Source: a phage. From it: 52,133 nt of DNA. Position numbers and translations under genes: made by a program. Of this stretch, positions 2 through 44,661 are shown piece after piece; the first letter of the stretch is position 1; every line of letters starts with the position of its first letter. A model generated the notes under the pieces. That model searched no databases, was not told the origin of the DNA, and saw only the letters and a list, made by a program, of their open reading frames with translations. The DNA is taken from sequence record OZ470597.1, one strand, 5' to 3'.

Positions 2-523
2 ATGGCTAAAAACGTTGAGCCAGCAGTAAAGGCTTGCAATTTTAAAAAGCTATACAATAAGCAATATGGCGATATTGCAAAAATGACAAAGGCGCACAAG
101 TACACGCCGGAACAGGTGTTTGATCTGGCTGTACGTTACTTTACGTGGGCCGAGGAAAACCATATACAGGCTGCGGAAACTGCATCCTTTCAGGGTAATG
201 TATACGAAAGCAAGATTCACAAGCCGCGCGTGTTCACCTTAAATGGATTCCGCTTATTCGCTGGCCTTTCTGCTTCCGTGCTTGAAAAATGGCGACGCGA
301 GCCAGGATTCAGCGATGTTATGGACTTTATCGACGGAGTTGTTTACGAGCAAAAATTCCAGCTTGCTGCAAACAATATTGTTAACGCTGGATTCATTGGT
401 AAAGAGATCGGCATTGAAAAGCCAGCCACCGTTACCATTGAGAATAACACAAGCGCCAGCGTTGACGCTGTAACGGCGGAGGAAGTCAAAGAGGCGGTAA
501 TTGACATTCTGGAGAAGATATAA
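2..523 (+). CDS. terminase small subunit (putative)
   Basis: ATG at 2; 173 aa ORF whose stop overlaps the start of the large terminase (TAATG at 521-525); assigned by position only. Confidence 0.5.
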   Translation: MAKNVEPAVKACNFKKLYNKQYGDIAKMTKAHKYTPEQVFDLAVRYFTWAEENHIQAAETASFQGNVYESKIHKPRVFTLNGFRLFAGLSASVLEKWRREPGFSDVMDFIDGVVYEQKFQLAANNIVNAGFIGKEIGIEKPATVTIENNTSASVDAVTAEEVKEAVIDILEKI

Positions 524-2091
524 TGCTGATTTGGGAAGACTTAACAGCGGCGCAAAAACGCGCCATTAAGGAAATGAGCGAATATTCATTCGAAAAGATG
601 ATCCGCATTTGGTTCCAACTTCTCCAGGGACAAAGGTTCTTAGGAAACTGGCATTTCAGTTACCTATGCAGCGAAGTTGAAAAAATCATCAAAGGCGAGT
701 CACAAAACGTAATTTTCAACATAACGCCAGGCAGCGGTAAAACAGAGATATTCTCGATCCATATGTCACCTTATGCGTCATTGAAAAGTAAGAAGGTGCG
801 AAATCTTAATCTTTCGTTTAGTGATGGCCTTGTCCAGCAGAATAGCAACCGAATTAAGGAGATTATCGGTTCTCCAGAATGGCAGGAGCTATGGCCTGGA
901 AAACTGGCAAAGGCGAGCGCAAAGGATCTGATCGTAACCGATGGCGGCAAGGTTAAATTGCAAGTTAACTCGCGATCTATAGGTGGTCAGGTTACTGGTC
1001 TGCGTGGCGGCTACATGGACGATGGATTTACTGGTATGCTGGTTCTTGATGATCCAGACAAACCGGATGACATGCTTTCTAAGGTAAAGCGCGAAGCCGG
1101 ACACATGCGCCTAAAGAACACGGTGCGATCGCGTCGAATGAAGGACACAACGCCCATCGTAATGGTCCAGCAACGGCTACACGTCAATGATTCAACATGG
1201 TTCATGACAAACGGAGGTATGGGCGGCATCCAGTTTAAGGTTGTTAGCATTCCGGCGCTCGTTACTAAGGAATATCGCGAAACGCTTCCTGATTGGTTAA
1301 GGCATGAGTTTGATCGCGATGTTTTGTCCAGCAAGCCAGTAATGATTGATGGAGTTGCTCATTATTCATTCTGGCCTGCTAAGGAAAGCGCGGAGGAATT
1401 ACTTGCACTTCGCAATGCTGATCCGTACACGTTCGCTAGTCAGTACCAGCAACAGCCTGTTGCGCTTGGCGGTAACGTGTTTAAAACAGAGTGGTTTCAG
1501 TATTACGGCAGCAGCGAGAAATGCACGCTACCAAAACCGGATCGCTTTGAATATACATTTATCACGGTTGATACCGCGCAGAAAACAGGTGAGCTTAACG
1601 ACTACTCCGTGATCTGTTATTGGGGGATGTATAAAGATCGCGTTTACTTCATTGATGGTGTTCGCGGAAAATGGGAAGCACCAGACCTTGAGACTAATTT
1701 TGTTGCGTTCGTTAATCAGTGCTGGAAGCGCAATAAAGAATGCGGAACGTTGAGAAGGATTCATGTTGAAGATAAGTCATCTGGTACTGGCTTGATTCAG
1801 AGCGCAGCGAAAAAAATCATGATCAAGATCAATCCCGTTCAGCGAGATAAAGATAAGGTTACGCGAGCAATGGACGCAGCACCAGTAATGCGCGCCGGAC
1901 GCGTGGCACTTCCAGAATCTCATCCTATGCTGGCTGAGATACTCGCTGAAGTTGCGGCGTTTACATTCGATGATAGCCATCCTCATGATGATATTGTTGA
2001 TAACATCATTGATGCGGTTAACATTGAAATGAACATGGCAGATGATCCGGTTGGAAGAATGAAAAAATTGGCAGGTTTGCGGAACAAATAG
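523..2091 (+). CDS. terminase large subunit
   Basis: 522 aa; P-loop-like TPGSGKTE, Walker B-like MLVLDDPD, C-terminal nuclease-type acidic motifs (ITVDTAQ, HVEDKSSGTG); followed by terminator. Confidence 0.8.
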   Translation: MLIWEDLTAAQKRAIKEMSEYSFEKMIRIWFQLLQGQRFLGNWHFSYLCSEVEKIIKGESQNVIFNITPGSGKTEIFSIHMSPYASLKSKKVRNLNLSFSDGLVQQNSNRIKEIIGSPEWQELWPGKLAKASAKDLIVTDGGKVKLQVNSRSIGGQVTGLRGGYMDDGFTGMLVLDDPDKPDDMLSKVKREAGHMRLKNTVRSRRMKDTTPIVMVQQRLHVNDSTWFMTNGGMGGIQFKVVSIPALVTKEYRETLPDWLRHEFDRDVLSSKPVMIDGVAHYSFWPAKESAEELLALRNADPYTFASQYQQQPVALGGNVFKTEWFQYYGSSEKCTLPKPDRFEYTFITVDTAQKTGELNDYSVICYWGMYKDRVYFIDGVRGKWEAPDLETNFVAFVNQCWKRNKECGTLRRIHVEDKSSGTGLIQSAAKKIMIKINPVQRDKDKVTRAMDAAPVMRAGRVALPESHPMLAEILAEVAAFTFDDSHPHDDIVDNIIDAVNIEMNMADDPVGRMKKLAGLRNK

Positions 2092-19815: not shown

Positions 19816-20454
19816 ATGGCTGAATATGGAGCAATGTTATCTTTATCAAATGGGAATCCATTTATCACACCAAAATCAACGCCATTTTGCTTGTATGGTA
19901 AGTACACTTATTCATCTTCTGGCACTTCAGCATATCATAGCGCAAGCGCAAATATACCATTAAATCAATCTTATCCATGCATGGTATTTATAAAAACAAC
20001 AAACACACAACAGCCAACCGCATTAATAGCTTACAGGAATGGTGGTAACATTTATGTAAACGGAGGCAATCCATACGGGCAATCATTTACAATGACTGTT
20101 TATATATTTGCTATATTCCCTCAAACTCTACCAAAATATGGTATGGCTATATGGGATGCAAGCGGAAAGTTGGTTTTAACTAATGAAAGCAGGGTGCTAA
20201 CAGACCTTGTGACAATTGGTACTCCTGGCTCTTCAGGTGGGACGAATATAGATCAGACATTATCTGGTTCTTATGCCGTTTGCCCATCAAGGCTTGGTGC
20301 GGTTATAGGTATGGGTGCGTCTGACATATATACATCATGCAGGTATGATGGTTCAAACACAAGGATAGGTGCGGCAAGGACAACTCCAGGGACGGGGTCT
20401 ATAACAAATAACGGAAATTCAATAATTGCAATAAAGACTGATATTTACGACTAA
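19816..20454 (+). CDS. putative receptor-binding protein (MAEYG family, long paralog)
   Basis: 213 aa directly after J-like gene; contains internal repeat of YGMAIWDASGK; followed by bidirectional terminator and convergent lipoprotein gene. Confidence 0.45.
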   Translation: MAEYGAMLSLSNGNPFITPKSTPFCLYGKYTYSSSGTSAYHSASANIPLNQSYPCMVFIKTTNTQQPTALIAYRNGGNIYVNGGNPYGQSFTMTVYIFAIFPQTLPKYGMAIWDASGKLVLTNESRVLTDLVTIGTPGSSGGTNIDQTLSGSYAVCPSRLGAVIGMGASDIYTSCRYDGSNTRIGAARTTPGTGSITNNGNSIIAIKTDIYD

Positions 20455-20460
20455 TTAAAA

Positions 20461-20485
20461 AGGGGCTTTGGCCCCTTTGTTTTTA
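20461..20485. terminator. bidirectional intrinsic terminator between RBP gene and convergent lipoprotein gene
   Basis: AGGGGC...GCCCCT hairpin flanked by A-run upstream and T-run downstream. Confidence 0.65.
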
Positions 20486-20486
20486 T

Positions 20487-20714
20487 TTACATGCTGCAAT
20501 CAGCGTTTTTAAAGTTATCAATGCTTACCCACTGAAAATTAAATGGATAGCCAGCCTTAACAAGAGTGCGGTCGCCAACTCGTTTTACTCCAAAGATAGC
20601 AACTGAATACTGCATTCCGCTATTTTCATAAATAGCGGTGCATTCACGTTTAGGCATATTTGCACAACCAGTCAGAGCAACGGCTGCAATCAAAACGGCG
20701 ATTAATTTTTTCAT
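20487..20714 (-). CDS. small outer-membrane lipoprotein, putative superinfection exclusion protein (Cor-like)
   Basis: 75 aa; signal peptide with lipobox LTGC (MKKLIAVLIAAVALTGCA); AAGGAG RBS; own promoter carrying the conserved motif; convergent to RBP gene. Confidence 0.55.
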   Translation of the reverse strand: MKKLIAVLIAAVALTGCANMPKRECTAIYENSGMQYSVAIFGVKRVGDRTLVKAGYPFNFQWVSIDNFKNADCSM

Positions 20715-20745
20715 CTTGGTATCTCCTTCGTTGTTGTTGGTTGCA

Positions 20746-20788
20746 ACTATACACGATCTTACAGCATGCGTTTAGCAAAAAGTGCTAT
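20746..20788 (-). promoter_or_regulatory. conserved-element promoter (ATAGCACTTTTTGCTAAAC + extended -10 TGTATAGT) for Cor-like lipoprotein gene
   Basis: element 20769-20788 on minus strand, -10 at 20746-20751. Confidence 0.5.
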
Positions 20789-20859
20789 TATGTTCTTTTT
20801 GTTCTCGCGTGTTCTCAAATCTGCGGAGTCTTAAATTTAGCTCAAAAAGTGAACAATAA

Positions 20860-21030
20860 TAGAGCACAATACATACAGATAAATATATATACATACATAT
20901 AAATCAATAAGTTAGTAGTATATATATTTATATTCGTTCTTTATTGTTATCTATGTTCTGTGTGATTTTGCGTGTCCGGTGATTTTTATTGTGATTATGC
21001 ATGTGTCAGTGGTTATGTGTGTCTATATAT
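20860..21030. repeat. AT-rich / GT-rich iteron-like noncoding region
   Basis: ATACATACA repeats (20870-20899) and GTGATT(T/A)T repeats at 20962, 20979, 20991 plus GGTTATGTGTG at 21011-21021. Confidence 0.5.
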
Positions 21031-21159
21031 CTATATCCGGCGCAAGTTGAGGAACAAGAGAACAAAAAGACAACAAAGATATTTATCAATCACTTACATG
21101 TAAGTTTTGTTATCTAAGTTGGTTATAACGTTGTTAGAACAGAAAAAACAAAATAACTA

Positions 21160-21187
21160 TTGACTAAACGCATCAAATAGCTACAAT
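21160..21187 (+). promoter_or_regulatory. sigma70-like promoter of recombination module (TTGACT-16-TACAAT)
   Basis: -35 TTGACT 21160-21165, 16-nt spacer, -10 TACAAT 21182-21187, about 30 nt upstream of exonuclease ATG. Confidence 0.5.
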
Positions 21188-21216
21188 GCAGACATACCAA
21201 CCAATGAGGGTAAATC

Positions 21217-22278
21217 ATGAATAAGTTTATGGCGTACACCAGCGAAGAAATGAGCAATGAGCTTTATCACGATCCAGAAGCGTGGACGGCTGATTATGTT
21301 AGTGGATCAAGCCTTGCAGAGATTTACAGCACATGCCCGGCGGCGTGGAAGTTCAAGCCGCGTGAAGATAAGAGCAAGGCGCTAGTTTTCGGTACGCAGT
21401 CGCATACCAACTTTGAAAGCAAGGAGCTTTTCGAAAAAACATATCGCCGTGCGCCAGCGCCAGAAGACTTTAAGGATCTGATAACTAGCCAAACGGCGCT
21501 TGCTGCAAAACTGAAATCATTTGGCCTGAAAGGTACAACCGGAAAGACTTATCCAGACCTTATCAAAATGATGGTGGATTGCGGAGAAGACCTTAACGTT
21601 ATGTGGTTGATTGAGATGATCGCAGAAAGCCAGGCCAGGGCTGACGGCGTACAGCTAATCGAATCTAAAGATTACGATGCGTGCGTTGCAATGCGCCAGG
21701 TTCTGGAATCAATACCGGAACATAACGCATGTATGAATAGCAAGACGGCACAACGTGAATTATCGTTGTTCGGTGAAATTAACGGCGTAAAAGTCAAAGT
21801 GCGATGCGATCACGTTGACGTAACAAAGAACGTCACCGCAACGCTGATTGATGGTTACGATGAAAAAGGTCAGCCGATTTGCCGAGATATTATTTATCCA
21901 GAGGCCATTGTGATCACAGACTACAAAACTACAATGAGCGCGAATCCGGCTGAGTTTATGCGCCTGGCTTACAATCACGGCTATTATTTGAAAATGGCGT
22001 TGCAATGTGATTTATTCAGAAAAGCGTATCCAGAAGAAAAGCGACCTATAGTTGTGCGACTGTTAGCGCAAGAGAAGAAAGAGCCTTATTTGCCGTTGGC
22101 TTTCCGCATGAATAGCGAGCAATTGAAGATCGGGCGCATTCAGTACATGAGCGTAATTAACCAGTTTGCCATGTGCCAGCAACATGACGTTTGGCCTTCG
22201 TATTCAAACGGTGAGCCTGAGGTTTGCCTTGATACTCCTGATTGGGTGCGCCGCCAGTTTAAGCAATATCTTATTTAA
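21217..22278 (+). CDS. recombination exonuclease (PD-(D/E)XK family)
   Basis: 353 aa; RCDHVD and ITDYKTT motifs consistent with PD-(D/E)XK nuclease; sigma70-like promoter TTGACT-16-TACAAT upstream; precedes ERF and SSB. Confidence 0.6.
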   Translation: MNKFMAYTSEEMSNELYHDPEAWTADYVSGSSLAEIYSTCPAAWKFKPREDKSKALVFGTQSHTNFESKELFEKTYRRAPAPEDFKDLITSQTALAAKLKSFGLKGTTGKTYPDLIKMMVDCGEDLNVMWLIEMIAESQARADGVQLIESKDYDACVAMRQVLESIPEHNACMNSKTAQRELSLFGEINGVKVKVRCDHVDVTKNVTATLIDGYDEKGQPICRDIIYPEAIVITDYKTTMSANPAEFMRLAYNHGYYLKMALQCDLFRKAYPEEKRPIVVRLLAQEKKEPYLPLAFRMNSEQLKIGRIQYMSVINQFAMCQQHDVWPSYSNGEPEVCLDTPDWVRRQFKQYLI

Positions 22279-29062: not shown

Positions 29063-29536
29063 TTAGCAATTAGTGCTTTCAGGTTTATACAGGAATCCGC
29101 CAGGTTCATAATCTGACATTCTTACCACTCGCAACATTTCACGCTTATCACATCTCTTTGTGAGCGGTTTGCCATTGGAATCAAATCGCAGATCTGGACG
29201 GCAGAATGAAGCTCGATAGCCTTGACAGCCATACTTTTTGTAATCGTTATGCACCTTTTGAGCGCCAGCGGCTGAAATCATACCGCGAACACGCCACTGA
29301 TTTACGGTTTGCTGGCTAACGTTAAGACGTTTTGCCATTGCTGACACGCTTCCGTAATACTCAATAAGGATGTCAAGTCGCGCTTTTAGTCCGGCGCGCA
29401 CTTCATCTTTTAAAACATAGTATCCTGTAGGGCGCTTGCGCTTTTTCTTATCTTTACCCCGTCGAGTTCCGTTATTGCCATTAATTGTGCGCTTGTCAAT
29501 CTTGCCTGTTGATACTGCGATTCGCTGTTCTTTCAT
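29063..29536 (-). CDS. HTH-domain DNA-binding protein (putative transcriptional regulator)
   Basis: 157 aa; basic N-terminus and helix-turn-helix SVSAMAKRLNVSQQTVNQW; divergent from helicase gene. Confidence 0.55.
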   Translation of the reverse strand: MKEQRIAVSTGKIDKRTINGNNGTRRGKDKKKRKRPTGYYVLKDEVRAGLKARLDILIEYYGSVSAMAKRLNVSQQTVNQWRVRGMISAAGAQKVHNDYKKYGCQGYRASFCRPDLRFDSNGKPLTKRCDKREMLRVVRMSDYEPGGFLYKPESTNC

Positions 29537-29549
29537 TATTCATTCTCCA

Positions 29550-29592
29550 ATAGCATTTTTTGTTAAACGATGATTTAATGATTGTGTATTAT
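29550..29592 (+). promoter_or_regulatory. conserved-element promoter upstream of helicase gene
   Basis: ATAGCATTTTTTGTTAAAC 29550-29568, 18-nt spacer, -10 TATTAT 29587-29592. Confidence 0.5.
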
Positions 29593-29625
29593 ACACGCCA
29601 AATGGCATTACTCAAAGGTTTTAGA

Positions 29626-31665
29626 ATGATTCCAAACATTGAAAAGCAAATATCAGCACTTGGTGAAGCGGTAATTAAATCCATTCAGGAGCGTTTCACT
29701 GTTGGCGAGATTGTGCCTTACCCTTACCAGTGCGTTGCATACGCTGAGATCGCAAAGCGTATGAAAAATTATGAGCATCCATTCTTTGTTAAAGCGTCCG
29801 TATCGGCTGGCAAAACATTGATGTTTGCAATGGTTGCTCACCAGTGCCGGAAAATGGGCTTAAAAATGATGGTTCTTGCTCGCCAAGCTGAGATTGTGGA
29901 TCAAGATTCTGAAGAGATAACAAATCTTGGCGTGCCGAACTCAATCTATTGCGCAGGGCTGAAGACAAAGAGCGCATACTTTCCGATCGTTGTTGGTTCT
30001 GAGGGAACTGTAGTTAATGGACTCTTTAAAGCGCTTAGCGACTATGTTCCTCACGTTATCGGGATTGACGAGTGTCACCAGGTGGATTGGGAAGACCTTG
30101 CCGACGCAATAGAGAAAGACGAGTCATTTTTACAAATGACGACAAAGAAAGGCGAAAAAGTACCAAATCCAGATTATGACGTAGCGAGCGATAACGAATG
30201 CGAAGAGTTCCTGATTGGTGAGGATGGCTTGCCAATGGAGGGAACAGGCCGCACACAATACACTGTCATTATTATGGAAATGATGCGCCGTTGCCGGAAA
30301 ACATATGGTCATGAACTACGCATATTTGGCATGACTGGATCAGAGTTTCGCGGTGTAGTCCCAATACTGGTAGAAGATAAAAAGCAAAAAGGATTCTGGC
30401 GTGAGCAGGTTACTAATATTGACACCAACTACCTGATCAAGTTCGGATCTGTTGTTCCGACTAATTTTGGCGACGTTGGCGATCTCGGGTATGACCTTTC
30501 AGAGTTTGAGGCATCAAGCGAGGATGGCGTTGCAGACTTTGACGCTAAAACGCTTCGCAGGATGGAACAAAAAATTCATGAAGAAGCGACCATGACAAAG
30601 CGCATCATGGCGAAAGTGCACGAGATATGTAAAAACCGTAACGGCGTACTTGTGACATGTGCAGGCGAAAGGCACTGTAAAGAGGCAGCGGCAGCATTGC
30701 CACCTGGAACGACTTACAGGATCATTACTGGTAAGACTGGCGATAACCAGCGCAAGGAGTGGTTGAAGGAGGCATACGAAGGGAAGGTAAAATACATCTT
30801 CCAGGTTCAGGCGCTAACAACTGGCGTTAACGTGCCTTTTTGGGATACGTCGGTTATATTGCGCAAGATTGGATCTCTTACGTTGCTGATTCAGCTTTTA
30901 GGGCGCGGAATGCGACTACTTAAGAAGTGGCATAAGGAGCAAGGATTCCAGAAAGATGATCATCTCGTCATGGATTTTTCAGGAACGATGGACGAGTTAG
31001 GGGAACTTTATTTTGATCCGATACTTGAACAGGCGCAACACAAGAAGCGATTCAGGAACGGTAAAGATCCGAAGCCTTGTCCTATTTGTGGAACTCTTAA
31101 CAGCTATTATGCTCGTCGTTGTATGCACGTAGACGAAAACGACAACAGATGCGAGTGGTTCTTTAAATTCAGGACATGTGATGATCAGATTGACCCGCGC
31201 ACTAAAAAGATTATTCATCGCGGTTGCGGCACGAAGAATGATATTGCGGCCAGGGTATGCAGACATTGCGACATGTCATTAATTGACCCTAACGAGAAGT
31301 TAAGCGGAAAGCACTACACAAAAAACGACTGGTTCAAGGTGCAATCTTTCTCGGTTGACATGACGAAAAACCAGAAAGGGATAATATTTAATTATGAGCT
31401 TTCCGATGGCATAGACACTTTCAGGGCGAGAGAGATATTTTTCCCTGAATCTGAAAGCCAAATTTGCCGCGCAAAATGGCGAAGCGTTGCCCTTAAGCAC
31501 ATACCAGATCGCCGCATCGCTGGTATGGTGGCGAGCTATCGCAATGCGCGTAAAATCATGCAATATGTGAATCACATCATGCCGCCATCGCGCGTGACTC
31601 ACCGCAAGACTAGCAAGGGCGAAGATAATTTGTACAAAAAGGAATTTAATTATGGCAATGACTGA
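29626..31665 (+). CDS. SF2 DEAD/DEAH-box ATP-dependent helicase
   Basis: Walker A SAGKT and DECH box; start set at ATG 29626, downstream of the conserved promoter at 29550-29592. Confidence 0.8.
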   Translation: MIPNIEKQISALGEAVIKSIQERFTVGEIVPYPYQCVAYAEIAKRMKNYEHPFFVKASVSAGKTLMFAMVAHQCRKMGLKMMVLARQAEIVDQDSEEITNLGVPNSIYCAGLKTKSAYFPIVVGSEGTVVNGLFKALSDYVPHVIGIDECHQVDWEDLADAIEKDESFLQMTTKKGEKVPNPDYDVASDNECEEFLIGEDGLPMEGTGRTQYTVIIMEMMRRCRKTYGHELRIFGMTGSEFRGVVPILVEDKKQKGFWREQVTNIDTNYLIKFGSVVPTNFGDVGDLGYDLSEFEASSEDGVADFDAKTLRRMEQKIHEEATMTKRIMAKVHEICKNRNGVLVTCAGERHCKEAAAALPPGTTYRIITGKTGDNQRKEWLKEAYEGKVKYIFQVQALTTGVNVPFWDTSVILRKIGSLTLLIQLLGRGMRLLKKWHKEQGFQKDDHLVMDFSGTMDELGELYFDPILEQAQHKKRFRNGKDPKPCPICGTLNSYYARRCMHVDENDNRCEWFFKFRTCDDQIDPRTKKIIHRGCGTKNDIAARVCRHCDMSLIDPNEKLSGKHYTKNDWFKVQSFSVDMTKNQKGIIFNYELSDGIDTFRAREIFFPESESQICRAKWRSVALKHIPDRRIAGMVASYRNARKIMQYVNHIMPPSRVTHRKTSKGEDNLYKKEFNYGND

Positions 31666-32071
31666 TAAAGGCGATTATCTGGAGTTTTACGAAAGAGATC
31701 CGACAGATACGCTAAAAGAGGAATCGCACCAGATCGGGGCGTTTCAATGGTTGACTTATGCTCATCCTGAATTACTGGCATGGCATACGAAAAACGAGGG
31801 CGACAAGGGGATCGCCACCGCAATGATGGATCAGCAAGCTGGGCTTGTTAAGGGCGTAAGTGATTTTATCATCCTGATTGGATTAAAAGGTCGTTACCCG
31901 TTCGCGGCAATTGAGATGAAGCGCGTCAATAAGTCCGGCAAGGGTAAGGCTTCACCAGTCAGCAAGGACCAAAAAGCCTTCTTGCGTCGTGTGCGTGAGC
32001 TTGGCGGATTCGCTGCCGTAACATACGGATATAAGCAATTCATGATCGCTGTAGAATACATGATGAAATAG
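31652..32071 (+). CDS. VRR-NUC domain nuclease
   Basis: 139 aa; PD-(D/E)XK-type SDFIILI...AAIEMKR motif typical of VRR-NUC. Confidence 0.6.
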   Translation: MAMTDKGDYLEFYERDPTDTLKEESHQIGAFQWLTYAHPELLAWHTKNEGDKGIATAMMDQQAGLVKGVSDFIILIGLKGRYPFAAIEMKRVNKSGKGKASPVSKDQKAFLRRVRELGGFAAVTYGYKQFMIAVEYMMK

Positions 32072-32111
32072 CACTTTTTGTTAAAACAGGCGCGAAGGAT
32101 TGCGCCATAAT
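32068..32111 (+). promoter_or_regulatory. conserved-element promoter upstream of dam
   Basis: ATAGCACTTTTTGTTAAAAC 32068-32087 overlapping upstream stop TAG; GC-rich inverted repeat spacer; -10 CATAAT 32106-32111. Confidence 0.55.
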
Positions 32112-32851: not shown

Positions 32852-33091
32852 ATGCAGAAAGAAAGAAGCGTTTATTTAAATGAAACTGGAGAGTGGTTGT
32901 TATTTCGCGCTATGGTTTGCGAGGCGCTTGATAAAAACGATTTCATAAAACCGCTATTAGGTTGCGATCCGTGGGAATTTACAAGCGCGCTTGACATGAG
33001 CTTCGAGGAAACAAGAAAACTACCGCTTGAAAAATGGCATGAGCAGATCGGTAAAGACTTGCAAGAGTTTTACGAATCAGCATCAAAATAG
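32852..33091 (+). CDS. hypothetical protein
   Basis: ATG 32852 (the listed ORF start 32765 overlaps dam); 79 aa; stop TAG lies inside the next conserved promoter element. Confidence 0.45.
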   Translation: MQKERSVYLNETGEWLLFRAMVCEALDKNDFIKPLLGCDPWEFTSALDMSFEETRKLPLEKWHEQIGKDLQEFYESASK

Positions 33092-33131
33092 CACTTTTTG
33101 TTAAAACGCCCGGCCTTGTGTCGGGCATAAT
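33088..33131 (+). promoter_or_regulatory. conserved-element promoter
   Basis: ATAGCACTTTTTGTTAAAAC 33088-33107 overlapping stop TAG; spacer hairpin GCCCGGCCTTGTGTCGGGC; -10 CATAAT 33126-33131. Confidence 0.55.
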
Positions 33132-36247: not shown

Positions 36248-36572
36248 CGCTCATTTCTCCGATCCTTAAAACATCCCTTACCCATTCGTTTTGCATACCT
36301 TCCAGGCTGTAAAGTTCAAACGAGAAAGGGCGATTTGCGGATCCTTTCTTACACCAGAACTTTCCACCAACTCCATCAAGATAACCAGCGGTCATCATTC
36401 TTGCGCAAAACTCTTTTGAAACGGCAGTCGCAAACATTCTCGGCGTAAATCCTGCGGCCCTTGCGAGCCGCTCACATTCTCTATGCTGAAATATAAATTT
36501 CGCTATATGTTGACGTGTAAACCATTCGAATGACTCACACCAGCGATACAGATCCAGAAGAAACATAATCAC
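36174..36572 (-). CDS. hypothetical protein
   Basis: 132 aa; start overlaps stop of upstream large gene (ATGA). Confidence 0.45.
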   Translation of the reverse strand: MIMFLLDLYRWCESFEWFTRQHIAKFIFQHRECERLARAAGFTPRMFATAVSKEFCARMMTAGYLDGVGGKFWCKKGSANRPFSFELYSLEGMQNEWVRDVLRIGEMSDEELFASNANRQNIEVLRRKFNLT

Positions 36573-38152
36573 CCCAGCAATGTTGGATTTACAAAAACAA
36601 CGCCATTAATCACACAAATATAATTTCTTTCTTCAAGCATCGGCAGCAGTTGCGTTTCCATACGCTTCATTACGCCAGCCTGACCAACAAAAGGCTTAAC
36701 TTTTCGTGCAGCCTCATATATGGCGCGCACATTCAAGATCCCCTTGTTAGCCTTACCGTGTCGAGTGATAATCTCGATTAGTTTACCCATTTCAGCATCA
36801 TCACCAGCATAGCCAGAAGCGTTGGCGGCGCTAATGTATGTTTTGCTCAACTCGCTAAACATCAGCAGTGCTTCTTGAACGGTTTCAACTTCAATCTCTT
36901 TCGACTTCTGAGGGTATCCACCAGGATTAAACCAGTTGCGGATAGTGTGCAAAACTGAAGCAATCCTGATCACCTGCTTATCCATTTTGCCAAGCGCGCC
37001 GCGCAGCATTGTATGCGAATACTTTCCGCCATCAGCAAGGTGCGGTTCCATCTCCTGACGAGCCATGTTAAGGACTCGCATTGCTGATTTGCTGATCTTA
37101 AGCTGTATGTTTGATTCACTCATGATGTTATGGATCAGCTTAAAATATTGGCTTTTCAGTTCTCCATCAACAGGCTCATAAGTAGAATCACCGTTATCAT
37201 CAACAAATTTTCGACGACCTAAAAATGATTCTTCACGCACAAGCAAATAACGCTCACTCACACCGATACCGCGCGATCCTGCATCCATGATGGCATTAAT
37301 TGTTTCATCCTGGGCAATTACTGCCATACAGCCAAGAGCTTTAAAACTCATGTTATTGTCTGCGTTTGCGCGAGCTATAGAAACATGACCGTGATCCCAT
37401 GCTTTCAGCACAAGTTCGCTGTTGGTTTTACGTTCGCTATTGGCATATGTCAGACCTAAAAGGCTGTTAATACTCGTTGCCTCGTCTGAAATCACAGCAA
37501 AGTTACCCTGGCGATTGTTGATTCTTGCAAGTCCTTCCGGCGTGGTGTCTGACACAGGGAAAACGATGTCACACATCTTTTCCAGTTTTTCTTCCAGATC
37601 TTCTTTCTCCTGGTATAGCGATTCCATATCAGCACCAGATCGCTCGCTCTTCATCTCTTTTGCAAGACCTGCCAACTTTGCCTGAATCTTTTTCCGCTCC
37701 TTCTTTCGCTGATCATTAATTCTTTCCACTTCAGCAACCATAGGAGCAAGAGCCAGGCTGTTAACGGCAGATTTACCAGTTGAAGGAGGCTGGCTTGTGA
37801 CAACGTAAAGAGCGGTTGGCTGATCCGTTCCGTGATACTCAACCGTGAAGCGTCCAAGCATTGCAGCAGACACGCAGCCGATAAAATGCATATAGGCCGA
37901 TGATTCAGGGAATTGAACAGAGCGAGCAATGTTTCGCGCCAACTTACCAACAACATCAACATCATTGCCAAGAGAAATTACAGGGTAGCGATCGTTTCCG
38001 TTATTAACATCATTAACCTCACCCCAAAAGCTGGACGATTGACGGTATCCGTTAGCCTGAATGGACACGCGCACCGGAGACAATCCTTGTGCATCAGCTA
38101 ATTCGATAATTTGTTTTGGTGTTAGTTTATTGGTTTCAAACGAAAAATTCAT
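36569..38152 (-). CDS. large hypothetical protein (possible DUF3987-like replication-associated protein)
   Basis: 527 aa from ATG 38152 (AAAGGAG RBS; ORF extends to 38212); conserved promoter element immediately upstream; P-loop-like PPSTGKS is non-canonical. Confidence 0.5.
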   Translation of the reverse strand: MNFSFETNKLTPKQIIELADAQGLSPVRVSIQANGYRQSSSFWGEVNDVNNGNDRYPVISLGNDVDVVGKLARNIARSVQFPESSAYMHFIGCVSAAMLGRFTVEYHGTDQPTALYVVTSQPPSTGKSAVNSLALAPMVAEVERINDQRKKERKKIQAKLAGLAKEMKSERSGADMESLYQEKEDLEEKLEKMCDIVFPVSDTTPEGLARINNRQGNFAVISDEATSINSLLGLTYANSERKTNSELVLKAWDHGHVSIARANADNNMSFKALGCMAVIAQDETINAIMDAGSRGIGVSERYLLVREESFLGRRKFVDDNGDSTYEPVDGELKSQYFKLIHNIMSESNIQLKISKSAMRVLNMARQEMEPHLADGGKYSHTMLRGALGKMDKQVIRIASVLHTIRNWFNPGGYPQKSKEIEVETVQEALLMFSELSKTYISAANASGYAGDDAEMGKLIEIITRHGKANKGILNVRAIYEAARKVKPFVGQAGVMKRMETQLLPMLEERNYICVINGVVFVNPTLLG

Positions 38153-38177
38153 TGATGATAACTCCTTTTGATGCGGC

Positions 38178-38221
38178 AATAATACCGCACCAATGCTACC
38201 CGCATTTAACAAAAAATGCTA
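38178..38221 (-). promoter_or_regulatory. conserved-element promoter for 36569..38152 gene
   Basis: minus-strand ATAGCATTTTTTGTTAAAT (38204-38221) and -10 TATTAT (38178-38183). Confidence 0.5.
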
Positions 38222-39323: not shown

Positions 39324-39367
39324 ATTATGCCAGGCTTTTACACCTGGCTTTTAACAAAAAGTGCTAT
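39324..39367 (-). promoter_or_regulatory. conserved-element promoter for 38909..39292 gene
   Basis: minus-strand ATAGCACTTTTTGTTAAAAG (39348-39367), spacer hairpin GCCAGGTGTAAAAGCCTGGC, -10 CATAAT (39324-39329). Confidence 0.55.
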
Positions 39368-40050: not shown

Positions 40051-40567
40051 GATTTTTATGATACCCCAATTCATTCTCGGCTTTACGTTTTGCGGCAACA
40101 GCATCTCCAAAACTGGAGAAACAACCTATATAAATCCTACATCCTCGCTTTCCGCTTCCAACCCTTACAACCCATTTTCCATGTTTATTTTTATGCACAC
40201 CTGGTATGCCACTTGTATTGTTTTTCTGCTTTGATGTGTTTCGCATATTTCCTTTGTGATCTTTTAATTCAAAGTTTATTGCTCTGTTATCAGTAGTAAT
40301 GTGATTTACGTGATCAACCTCCATTCCTTCCGGTATAGGCCCATAGTGCATTTCATAGCATATTCTATGAACTTTCAGATTATAACGCTTTCCATTTACA
40401 GTAAGTGCGGTTTCTAAATATCGACCACCACTACCCAAAGAGCCAACCTCATTACCAGCATTGCAAGCATTCCATTGTTTAACTCTTGATTGGTGAATAT
40501 CTTTTCTTTCTTTCCAGAACAGCTTTCCAGTTTCTGGATTGTATGTAAAGTAATCGTGCCAATTCAT
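40040..40567 (-). CDS. HNH homing endonuclease (paralog)
   Basis: 175 aa; MEVDHVNHITTDNRAINFEL HNH motif, C-terminal ELGYHKNHGK; GAGGTGA RBS. Confidence 0.8.
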   Translation of the reverse strand: MNWHDYFTYNPETGKLFWKERKDIHQSRVKQWNACNAGNEVGSLGSGGRYLETALTVNGKRYNLKVHRICYEMHYGPIPEGMEVDHVNHITTDNRAINFELKDHKGNMRNTSKQKNNTSGIPGVHKNKHGKWVVRVGSGKRGCRIYIGCFSSFGDAVAAKRKAENELGYHKNHGK

Positions 40568-43292: not shown

Positions 43293-43611
43293 TTGCTGAC
43301 TGGTCATTATTCCATCTATTCCATTAATCAGGAATAACAGGAATAACTCATTCTCGATCACCTGGATTGTGAGACTTTGAGTTTGATCAATTTTAATCAG
43401 TTGATTAACTTTTTGTGTGGAGGGGATAGAGAAACGCGATCCTCTCGCATCCTTTCCGGCAATCCTGGTGAGCGCAACTGTTGTCTTCTGTTATCGCTGT
43501 TGTGCGTGTTATTCCGGCGTGGAATCGCATAACAAAAAATAACAAGAAAAATCCATATAACATACTAAAAAATAAGGATTATTTATTTATATGTATCTAT
43601 AAATTATTATC

Positions 43612-43690
43612 TGTTATGTGTGTTATGTGGTTATATTGATACCTGGTGTATTTTTGGTGGTTGTGTGTGGTTGTGTGTTGGTTGGTGTGT
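43612..43690. repeat. GT-rich tandem repeats in divergent early control region
   Basis: TGTTATGTG x2 (43612-43629) and GGTTGTGTG x2 (43659-43677); shares GGTTATGTG-type motif with 20860-21030. Confidence 0.5.
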
Positions 43691-43890
43691 ATATATGGGG
43701 TGTGGGGCGTATCCGCGCATTTTTAGATAACACGCAAAAACAACATTGATTTATAAGAAAAAAAAACGCGAATCTTGTTATGTTATGAAAAGATAACATC
43801 GGAAAACCGCCGGTAACAATAAAAAACAGTTGACACACCAGGTGGCGGTAAATGATGATGCAGTCACTGAGTCACGAGGAGGTATAAAGC

Positions 43891-44361
43891 ATGAGTGAAT
43901 CTGTATTTACAAATGAGCTTCGCAAGGTTGCGATTGCGCTCGCATCTGGATTGCACGAATCGATCCAGATACCTGAAAGATGGGTAAGGCAGCACCTGGA
44001 GGGTAAGAAGTCAGCCAGCAATGCTGGATCATATATCCGTCAGATTATGGGGCGCGTTCCAGAAGTGGCGGAGAAGGGGAGAGTTTCAGTCTCAAAGAAA
44101 CCTTACGGCCCTGATAGCGAATATTTCGGAGAAAATTACTTTGATGTGGCGATTGTTAGTGCGCCGAATCGCAGGGTGTACAACAAGGCCGCGCTTGAGA
44201 AGGCTGTAGCGAAAGCAAAACGCCAGGTTGCTGAGTCGATGCTTAAAGTCTCACCAAACCTAGCGAACTACTCGCCAGATGAATATGAAACACTTGCTAA
44301 GGCGATCGCAGACTTTCACGCGATCATTAAAGAAACATATCTTAACGATGAGGAACAATAA
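43891..44361 (+). CDS. hypothetical protein (first gene of rightward early arm)
   Basis: 156 aa, GAGGAGG RBS. Confidence 0.5.
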   Translation: MSESVFTNELRKVAIALASGLHESIQIPERWVRQHLEGKKSASNAGSYIRQIMGRVPEVAEKGRVSVSKKPYGPDSEYFGENYFDVAIVSAPNRRVYNKAALEKAVAKAKRQVAESMLKVSPNLANYSPDEYETLAKAIADFHAIIKETYLNDEEQ

Positions 44362-44617: not shown

Positions 44618-44661
44618 ATAGCACTTTTTGTTAAAACGCCAGGCGCAAAACCTGGCATAAT
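44618..44661 (+). promoter_or_regulatory. conserved-element promoter
   Basis: ATAGCACTTTTTGTTAAAAC 44618-44637 overlapping stop; spacer hairpin GCCAGGCGCAAAACCTGGC; -10 CATAAT 44656-44661. Confidence 0.55.

Follow-up and report, generated by a model that had tools for sequence, protein, structure and literature searches.

What function does the noncoding DNA serve that separates a cor-like gene from recE in a T1-like phage? The question is raised by sequence record OZ470597.1, a stretch of 52,133 nucleotides (hereafter, the window) that represents the complete or near-complete genome of a phage of the genus Hanrivervirus (Drexlerviridae, Tempevirinae), in which the gap between the two genes extends over 502 bp (20715-21216) and the region studied is 92-96% identical to that of the Hanrivervirus phages damhaus, haarsle and pSf-1. 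T1, one of the seven classic T phages, is a notorious laboratory contaminant and a common therapy candidate, and its replication origin and early gene control logic are unsettled. An earlier inspection of the letters of the window, unaided by database searches (the sequence-only reading), had noted here a noncoding gap of about 450 bp, right in kind and short in length, with candidate iterons, a promoter, and a motif common to positions 43612-43690. Our analysis interprets the gap as a cis-acting module for the assembly of a nucleoprotein complex, most likely a replication origin. We propose, with a confidence that for the reading as a whole stays a little short of even, that T1-like phages have two paralogous origins of replication, that this module 1 (about 20770-21190) is one of them, and that it is physically coupled to an immediate-early σ70 promoter. 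The two modules are the best candidates so far for the replication origins or early control regions of the family, and a duplicated module with defined parts narrows the T1 question to testable elements.

Module 1 was charted by aligning the recE-upstream regions of 28 Tempevirinae whose RecE proteins are 62-99% identical to that of the window, with conservation scored across 15 non-redundant Tempevirinae sequences. About 430 bp are alignable throughout in the 28 loci, even with another left neighbour and without cor. The sequence-only reading had delimited a structured region at 20860-21216; structure and conservation are borne out, and the left edge has to be moved some 90 bp further left, to about 20770. 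Conservation is maximal at short boxes (0.70-0.82), at the motifs CCGGCGCAA and ATCAnnnnCTTA, and at the promoter, with the spacers at background. The boxes, TGTTCT or TGTTAT and their complements, lie in arrays of two to three at a spacing of 8-11 bp and are both enriched (six copies of TGTTCT in the region, 0.26 expected) and conserved, as the repeated sites of an iteron-type origin would be. A first forward array, F1 (20790-20815, plus strand), holds three TGTTCT boxes at 20791, 20800 and 20810, in a phase of 9-10 bp, within which TTTTGTT and GTGTTC are near-invariant. The second, F2 (20935-20959, plus strand), comprises CGTTCT at 20935, TGTTAT at 20945 and TGTTCT at 20954, with ATTGTT and ATGTT as invariant islands. 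Complements of these boxes form the R array (21049-21075, minus strand; GGAACA at 21051, AGAACA at 21059, ACAACA at 21070) and, on the left, a pair of reverse boxes (20847-20876, minus strand; GAACAA at 20851-20856, GCACAA at 20864-20869) that read AGAACAGAAAAAACAA or ATAACAAAAAGAACAA in relatives. Forward and reverse arrays together make up long imperfect inverted repeats: R and F1 share a 13-nt perfect inverted repeat (20794-20806 and 21058-21070), while the left reverse boxes and F2 are an inverted pair that flanks a TA-rich core, and the module profile matches its own reverse strand with E = 3e-5.

This core (20869-20935), made of alternating purines and pyrimidines and containing ATACATACA twice, is a candidate DNA-unwinding element (DUE). 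It encloses a 14-nt perfect inverted repeat (20879-20892 and 20918-20931) and, at 20883-20901, the longest alternating purine/pyrimidine run of the window. The least stable 60- and 100-bp duplexes of the 52-kb genome are the TA cores of module 1 (z = 5.2) and of its counterpart near 43.6 kb, module 2 (z = 4.8-4.9), the next reaching 3.6. The two modules of T1 are likewise the least stable duplexes of that genome (z = 5.8 and 5.5), as are those of Klebsiella phage 1513 (5.8 and 5.6); taking window, T1 and phage 1513 together, the module duplexes have z = 4.8-5.9 and the next at most 3.7. An AT-rich element adjoining the repeated sites, expected of an iteron-type origin, is hence present at 20869-20935, in module 2, in T1 and in phage 1513.

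Module 2 (43470-43860, plus strand, its last part ending at 43859) lies where the early genes diverge into a leftward and a rightward block (gap at about 43.4-43.9 kb), the major point of divergent transcription in the window. When the whole window was searched with a profile hidden Markov model (HMM) of module 1, the single other co-linear match was 43470-43830 (HMM positions 74-438, about 360 nt, E = 3.4e-22), and the two module regions have 16 8-mers in common, where random segments share 3.3 on average and 13 at most. The link to 43612-43690 that the sequence-only reading had drawn is therefore real and far stronger than it had appeared. The motif on which it was based, GGTTATGTG, is in its exact form unique to module 1; the 43.6-kb region has in its place GTTATGTG twice (43613 and 43622) and GTGGTTAT, the GTTATGTG match arising where a TGTTAT box meets a G/T-only tract. 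Module 2 keeps the part order of module 1, with TGTTAT replacing TGTTCT (11 copies, 0.52 expected). From left to right it comprises four TGTTGT/TGTTAT boxes in 9-bp phase (43480-43512), CCGGCGTGGAAT after the first boxes, three ATAACA (43529, 43539, 43557), a TA core (43560-43611), TGTTAT boxes at 43612 and 43621, a G/T-only tract, TATATA, CGCGCATTT at 43714, ATAACA/AACAACA, TGTTATGTTAT at 43776, ATAACA at 43793, and TAACAATAAAAAACA before the -35 hexamer, in the same arrangement as AGAACAGAAAAAACAAAATAAC of module 1. The predicted promoter TTGACA-18-GATGAT (43830-43859, plus strand) closes it. A terminator-like hairpin (43698-43727; GTGTGGGGCGTATCCGCGC, then ATTTTT) overlaps CGCGCATTT and has no equivalent at the CCGGCGCAA motif of module 1.

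The duplicated layout is a property of the family. Besides the window, about 30 Tempevirinae genomes give a match of the Tempevirinae module 1 profile to module 2, in the expected place and orientation and with E values between 1e-7 and 4e-41, and a module 1 profile of the T1 lineage (Tunavirinae) detects positions 186-515 of T1 (E = 1.2e-9), noncoding DNA just inside the left (pac, or packaging) end of the record; with Klebsiella phage 1513, the two-module layout thus extends over about 30 Tempevirinae genomes, T1 and a Webervirus. Low complexity alone does not generate such matches, because the Tempevirinae profile misses the T1 modules beyond the promoter. Nor does the module depend on its left neighbour, since TLS-like phages, which lack cor, keep it in full, over about 400 bp upstream of the -35 hexamer. 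In SandraMuster_Bas78 and Vibrio K187, phages with a recE homologue that are more distantly related, recE is not preceded by an intergenic module, which makes the module a trait of T1-like phages and not of recE. In phage 1513, module 1 stands directly between an HTH (helix-turn-helix)-primase operon and recE-erf-ssb, with a helicase adjoining. The surroundings vary as follows. In phage 1513 (39675-43867), a helicase gene on the minus strand is followed by HTH, primase, the module (about 495 bp), recE, erf and ssb, all on one strand, as a compact replication/recombination cluster; in T1 and the Tempevirinae, HTH and primase are encoded by the other strand and follow the recE-erf-ssb operon at a distance of 5-8 kb; in AugustePiccard (Braunvirinae), and apparently in the Rtp-like phage too, a gene for a "putative DNA-binding protein" of 225 aa (28-705, minus strand) replaces cor to the left of the module.

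Across these lineages the scaffold is constant and the box is not. Tempevirinae have TGTTCY/TGTTAT; T1 and its relatives, the Rtp-like phage and AugustePiccard have TGTAAC/GTTACA; Klebsiella phage 1513 has GTAAGAT/ATCTTAC, with 13 of the 18 genomic copies of GTAAGAT inside its two modules. Within one genome the two modules have an identical box or boxes differing by one base. A wholesale swap of the box at fixed positions in both loci suggests that the sites co-evolve with a phage-encoded protein, and argues against a host factor as the reader of the boxes and against a purely structural role. The lineage boxes TGTTCY, TGTAAC and GTAAGAT in an unchanged scaffold also provide a natural test set for the binding protein and for the co-evolution of protein-DNA specificity.

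Phased inverted arrays around the weakest duplex, IHF (integration host factor)-type sites, divergent promoters, two copies and replacement of the sites are what would be expected of iteron-type origins, and on these grounds we infer protein binding, unwinding and initiation at the modules. The following sequence of events is conceivable. A lineage-specific phage DNA-binding protein would occupy the phased box arrays flanking the TA core in inverted orientation, and IHF would bend the DNA at two consensus sites. Divergent transcription, leftward from a cor promoter (P_cor) and rightward from a recE promoter (P_recE), would add negative supercoiling, and the TA core, the least stable duplex of the genome, would open, so that the phage helicase or helicases (about 29629-31665 and 36569-38212) and a primase related to that of satellite phage P4 (28076-29023) could be loaded there. 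Module 2, beside the pac end and the early operon, would work likewise with the same protein. On a still bolder reading, in which both modules are genuine origins, module 2 would unite an origin, an immediate-early promoter and a neighbouring pac site within about 0.5 kb at the genome end, while module 1 would serve the replication/recombination cluster, for example in a switch to recombination-driven concatemer synthesis, as proposed for SPP1 oriR. They would be the first origins defined for Drexlerviridae, with TGTTCY, TGTAAC and GTAAGAT as new initiator-iteron specificity pairs. The modules are also candidate parts for phage engineering, such as conditional replication or early expression cassettes.

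There is a general likeness to origins that combine iterons with a DUE, as in lambdoid phages, SaPI/PICI (Staphylococcus aureus pathogenicity and phage-inducible chromosomal) islands, plasmids, and archaeal DUEs flanked by origin recognition boxes, in which repeated initiator sites stand next to or on both sides of an AT-rich unwinding element, the DUE lies between inverted sites, and specificity co-varies with the cognate initiator. Those origins normally occur singly, in or beside the initiator gene, whereas the phage has its module twice, and each copy combines two nested pairs of convergent arrays with a G/T-only tract and a promoter at a fixed place. A more specific comparison is with ori and crr of satellite phage P4, whose type 1 iterons are bound by the α primase-helicase. 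The annotated P4 record has 8-bp TGTTCACC iterons at about 10-bp spacing, in both orientations and at two separate cis sites (ori and crr). The short boxes of 6-8 bp, their spacing of about 9-11 bp, the two orientations and the presence of two cis regions with related boxes in one genome (20.8-21.2 kb and 43.5-43.9 kb in the window) are all alike, and the T1-type primase is homologous to the primase domain of P4 α (E = 9e-14). The box cores are similar, with TGTTCAC in TLS-like modules only and TGTTCT in the window, where TGTTCT/TGTTAT stand in place of the P4 octamer TGTTCACC. The modules differ in having boxes around a long TA core and a G/T tract, a promoter at the end and a lineage-specific box, and no α-type origin-binding domain was detected in the primase or helicase of the window. 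By analogy only, the arrangement also recalls SPP1, a virulent pac-type siphovirus of Bacillus, in which oriL and oriR are bound by one initiator, G38P, and an exonuclease/annealase/SSB set drives the switch to concatemeric replication (PMC5615212). The points in common are the two related origin-type sites in a virulent pac siphovirus and such a set of recombination proteins; the differences are that the proteins are unrelated, the host is Gram-positive, oriL lies inside the initiator gene and the repeat sequence is another. As a kind of element, an iteron/DUE origin or a complex operator is familiar; what is new is a nested layout that is present twice and in which the box is replaced. The searchable literature, which does not cover the genome papers of T1 (Roberts et al. 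2004) and Rtp (2006), where an earlier mention is possible, holds no prior description of the modules. A plasmid collection gave no similar DNA.

Which protein would read the boxes? The sole protein of the window with a recognisable sequence-specific DNA-binding domain is a Cro/YdaS-type HTH protein of 157 aa (29063-29536, minus strand; Pfam and PHROG matches), co-transcribed with the primase and homologous to T1 gp23, a "transcriptional regulator". Its confident AlphaFold model (predicted local distance difference test score, pLDDT, 86) has a core that matches Cro proteins, and within the domain variation is greatest where the recognition helix would contact bases, as many as 14 residue types occurring at one position. 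Such a hypervariable helix suits a protein with lineage-specific targets. As the only recognisable binder, the HTH protein is a candidate, if unproven, reader of the boxes, encoded in an operon that lies 8 kb from module 1 in the window and directly adjoins it in phage 1513. Outside its Cro fold, it carries an N-terminal arm that hardly varies (IDKRTINGNNGTRRGKDKK) and a C-terminal domain that is conserved and contains Cys (GC.G[YF]RASFCRPDL.FD.NGK......C), corresponding to residues 1-35 and 100-135, and its homologues are found only in T1-like phages (contigs of about 45-53 kb). An in-frame fusion of HTH and primase in L089, which would have tied the HTH protein to replication, was ruled out, a stop codon being present.

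Several points weigh against origins, beginning with this protein. Across 21 genomes its recognition helix tracks the box type only in a coarse correlation, and a simple link is contradicted by phage 1513 and L071-type phages, whose helices are about two residues apart and whose boxes are quite different. A search for an initiator among the early and replication proteins of the window identified none: the P4-type origin-binding domain (Pox_D5, PF03288), which P4 α carries, was not found in the primase, the DUF3987 helicase or 20 early proteins. The replication genes of the window and T1 lie 5-8 kb from module 1. DnaA boxes are absent from the module (TTATNCACA occurs only at 40191 in the window). 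None of the predicted promoters points into the TA core, which leaves RNA-primed initiation without support, and GC skew is uninformative on replication because it tracks gene orientation. In the TLS genome, origin-type repeats were found neither inside the helicase gene nor elsewhere (TLS paper, 2024). Finally, canonical σ70 promoters number only three, each module adjoins one of them, and its boxes lie between about -40 and -65, which would be equally typical of an activator or repressor site.

Further searches around the module and for its reader were negative within their scope: GATC is not clustered in the module, Rfam has no covariance-model match at gathering score in 20400-21400, the Pfam scan of these 20 early proteins gave no DNA-binding domain, and P4 α and the DUF3987 helicase were not linked by BLASTP, by hhalign (a 13-sequence C-terminal alignment against the α C-terminus) or by a PDB profile search, the C-terminus of that helicase looking by eye like a winged helix. 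A co-variation screen of the Rtp-like phage (L029/L079), which has the T1 box type, revealed no clear protein that is closer to T1 than to the window. Because the Cro-like HTH protein does not track the box changes, the reader in this scheme would be a protein not yet recognised as a DNA binder; that the two modules are true origins, and that a single phage protein, specific to the lineage and not yet recognised as a DNA binder, reads both, is a combination that we entertain only tentatively, as clearly less probable than the origin reading in its broader form.

The promoters bring in the strongest alternative. P_recE (21160-21187, plus strand) is a predicted σ70-type promoter with TTGACT, 16 nt and TACAAT, matching the consensus at 10 of 12 positions, and its TLS equivalent has been predicted as P51. 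That this promoter is a good one, as had been read from the letters, holds by the consensus match and by conservation (0.97 for the -35 hexamer and 0.91 for the -10 hexamer) and not by a promoter scan alone, which yielded four promoter-like sites where shuffles gave 4.3; since the scan is not significant, support for P_recE comes from its conservation. The genome has three canonical σ70 promoters, namely P_recE, the promoter of module 2 and one upstream of the HTH-primase operon, other operons using a promoter class marked by a 21-nt repeat. The third, TTGAGT-16-TATAAT (29584-29612, minus strand), equals TLS P57 and precedes the genes for the Cro-like HTH protein and the primase; it sits inside the 5' end of the helicase open reading frame as called (29560-31665), whose true start is probably an ATG near 29629.

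It is possible, though less likely than an origin, that the modules are transcriptional control regions (operators or enhancers) of immediate-early promoters: an early phage protein would bind the arrays of both modules, loop the DNA with IHF, and shut off or boost P_recE and the early rightward promoter, the TA core being merely flexible or bent DNA. That the modules end in two of the three canonical σ70 promoters, that reverse boxes touch the -35 hexamer in both, and that the third such promoter drives a Cro-like HTH protein, a natural candidate regulator, all speak for control. So does a likeness to the early operator of phage Mu (O1-IHF-O2-O3), where multiple short sites in both orientations surround an IHF site and overlap the early promoters; Mu differs in being temperate, its repressor is known, and its operator neither contains an extreme melting element nor recurs at another locus. 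Control of transcription leaves other features unaccounted for, however. The conserved region reaches to about -400, which is unusually far for a simple promoter-upstream site, and persists without the leftward gene; repression needs neither an extreme melting minimum, nor a strand-asymmetric G/T tract, nor inverted arrays around a TA core; and phage 1513, whose recE promoter belongs to the 21-nt-repeat class, still retains the module, so that the module is not tied to a σ70 promoter. Origin and operator/enhancer functions are, moreover, not mutually exclusive.

The 21-nt repeat itself has a place at the left edge of the gap. This direct repeat of TLS/T1-like phages (aaATAGCACnnnTTGnTAAAA), described in the 2024 TLS paper with its function as an open question, occurs 20 times in the window (ATAGCACNNNTTGNTAAA, ATAGCACTTTTTGTTAAA), against 0.66 expected, for instance at 32068-32085 (plus strand), 33088-33105 (plus), 39350-39367 (minus), 44618-44635 (plus) and 20771-20788 (minus). 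Every copy has a (C/T)ATAAT or TATAGT hexamer at a fixed distance of about 19-20 nt downstream. The spacer is mostly a GC-rich inverted repeat, differing in sequence between copies with self-complementarity kept, and the distance from TTGTTA to the hexamer is 21-22 nt; because this exceeds the normal spacing of a σ70 -35/-10 pair, the repeats look like a phage-specific promoter class that requires an activator. The copy at 20771-20788 belongs to the leftward P_cor (20746-20788, minus strand), which consists of ATAGCACTTTTTGCTAAA (20788 to 20771), a 19-nt spacer and TATAGT (20751 to 20746); it lies 57 nt upstream of the cor start codon (20714), or 74 nt counted from the 5' end of the repeat. 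At this locus it alone fits the repeat as defined (ATAGCACnnnTTGnTAAAA, running along transcription about 76 nt before a start codon), and nothing in 20860-21216 does so. One copy thus forms the left edge of the gap and drives cor, but the repeats are dispersed and oriented with transcription and account for neither the box arrays nor the TA core. Another candidate, TTGnCTAAACGCAT, is common to both divergent promoters with one mismatch and was discarded, the pattern not being enriched genome-wide and P_cor being of the 21-nt-repeat type.

A structural element that responds to supercoiling and has no dedicated phage protein, in which melting or a cruciform or Z-DNA transition in the TA and GT tracts, repositioned by IHF, would activate the promoter as in the ilvPG upstream activating sequence, is improbable. 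The lowest duplex stability in the genome, the long alternating purine/pyrimidine runs, the 14-bp perfect palindrome and the IHF consensus sites inside or beside the unstable DNA would suit it well. It leaves unexplained, however, why the short boxes are the most conserved positions, and why they are swapped wholesale in both modules with positions and orientations kept; and the cruciform fold of the TA core is only modestly better in energy than shuffles (z = -2).

Less probable again is a packaging (pac) or recombination-initiation site, at which the small subunit of terminase or a nuclease would recognise boxes that surround the place of cutting, in the manner of P1 pac or SPP1 pacL/pacR. 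The records of T1, TLS and haarsle start (pac end) at a distance of only about 50-500 bp from module 2, hexamer arrays with an IHF site resemble P1 pac, and module 1 precedes the recombination operon. Yet packaging in T1 and TLS starts from just one pac site, close to the left end (one submolar fragment series; T1 terminal repeat 1-2800), and a site of like build 22 kb away should yield a second packaging series, of which none was reported in the restriction analysis of TLS. Module 1 is far from any known genome end, and the T1, TLS and haarsle records start beside module 2, which makes a packaging role unlikely for module 1. Of the functions that the sequence-only reading had considered, a common DNA-binding factor or a structural element, possibly an origin or a packaging site, the common factor or structural role thus fits, the origin is reasonable, and packaging falls away at this locus. 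Just left of module 2, at 43415-43432, lies a GTGnGGAGGGGAT(A/C)TAG motif, common to the first 70 or so bases of the T1 record (about 45-70), with the haarsle record starting at window position 43420; it may mark the pac or first-cut region, with the first box array of module 2 some 50 bp away.

That the GTGATT(T/A)T repeats and GGTTATGTG are themselves iterons bound by a common factor, as the sequence-only reading held, can be put aside as very improbable: three copies in 37 nt are unusual against the genome background (no Markov-simulated genome out of 300 had three GTGATTWT inside 40 nt), the genus retains copies 1 and 2, a few other genera retain GGTGATTT, and the haarsle GenBank record annotates the spot as an uncommented repeat_region, but the tract is the least conserved part of the module (0.54, spacer level across genera), copy 3 and GGTTATGTG vary even within the genus, the equivalent tract of module 2 and of other genera has the same composition and a different sequence, and, because 14% of local shuffles (of a 71-nt segment with 79% G+T) hold some 6-mer three times, the repeats cannot be told from low-complexity composition, those under selection being the TGTTCT/TGTTAT boxes and their complements.

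The strings on which that reading was built are all where it had placed them, with ATACATACA at 20869 and 20889 (and nowhere else in the window), GTGATT[TA]T at 20962, 20979 and 20991, GGTTATGTG at 21011 and the TTGACT-16-TACAAT promoter at 21160-21187, and they can now be set among the remaining parts of module 1. Downstream of F1, CTGCGGAGTCTTAAATTT (20821-20838), conserved in part, is the counterpart of CCGGCGTAAAAT of TLS-like relatives. The first of two predicted IHF sites, AATCAATAAGTTA (consensus WATCAANNNNTTR; 20902-20914, plus strand), falls inside the TA core, and several genera, like many module 2 copies, retain it as AAATCAATAGTTTA; the second, TATCAATCACTTA (21084-21096, plus strand), contains the family-wide core ATCAnnnnCTTA, conserved at 0.75 across genera. 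The IHF consensus has eight matches in the window, counting both strands, two of them perfect ones within the 502-bp gap. The G/T-only tract (20960-21020, plus strand), variable in sequence, begins just after F2 and contains both GTGATTWT and GGTTATGTG; the two most G+T-rich plus-strand 70-mers of the window are the tracts of module 2 (0.90) and module 1 (0.79), the mean being 0.50 and the standard deviation 0.07. It is followed by a second TATATA block, CTATATATCTATAT (21021-21036), with equivalents in module 2 (43691-43697) and T1, and by the near-invariant CCGGCGCAAGT (21037-21047, plus strand), whose motif CCGGCGCAA is the most conserved of the module outside the promoter (0.82) and whose counterparts are CGCGCATTT in module 2 (at 43714), GCGCATAAAAAT in T1 and GCGCAAAATTT in Klebsiella phage 1513. 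Between the second IHF site and the promoter are a single forward box, TTTTGTTATC (21104-21113, plus strand; conservation 0.79), and the promoter-proximal reverse boxes AGAACAGAAAAAACAAAATAAC (21135-21158, minus strand; 0.74), which touch the -35 hexamer.

To the left, module 1 is bordered by the cor-like gene (20487-20714, minus strand), whose 75-aa product has a lipoprotein-type N-terminus and is annotated in relatives as the Cor superinfection exclusion protein. To the right, a GAGGG ribosome-binding site (21206-21210, plus strand) precedes recE (21217-22278, plus strand), the exonuclease VIII gene by the annotation of relatives and the first of the recE-erf-ssb operon. Both module regions also have matches of 90-94% identity (to window positions 20700-21300 and 43400-43900) in about 18 unannotated "Campylobacter phage" records with C. 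jejuni as the host, and so close a likeness to a phage type of E. coli/Shigella suggests that coliphages contaminated those submissions or that the hosts were wrongly labelled.

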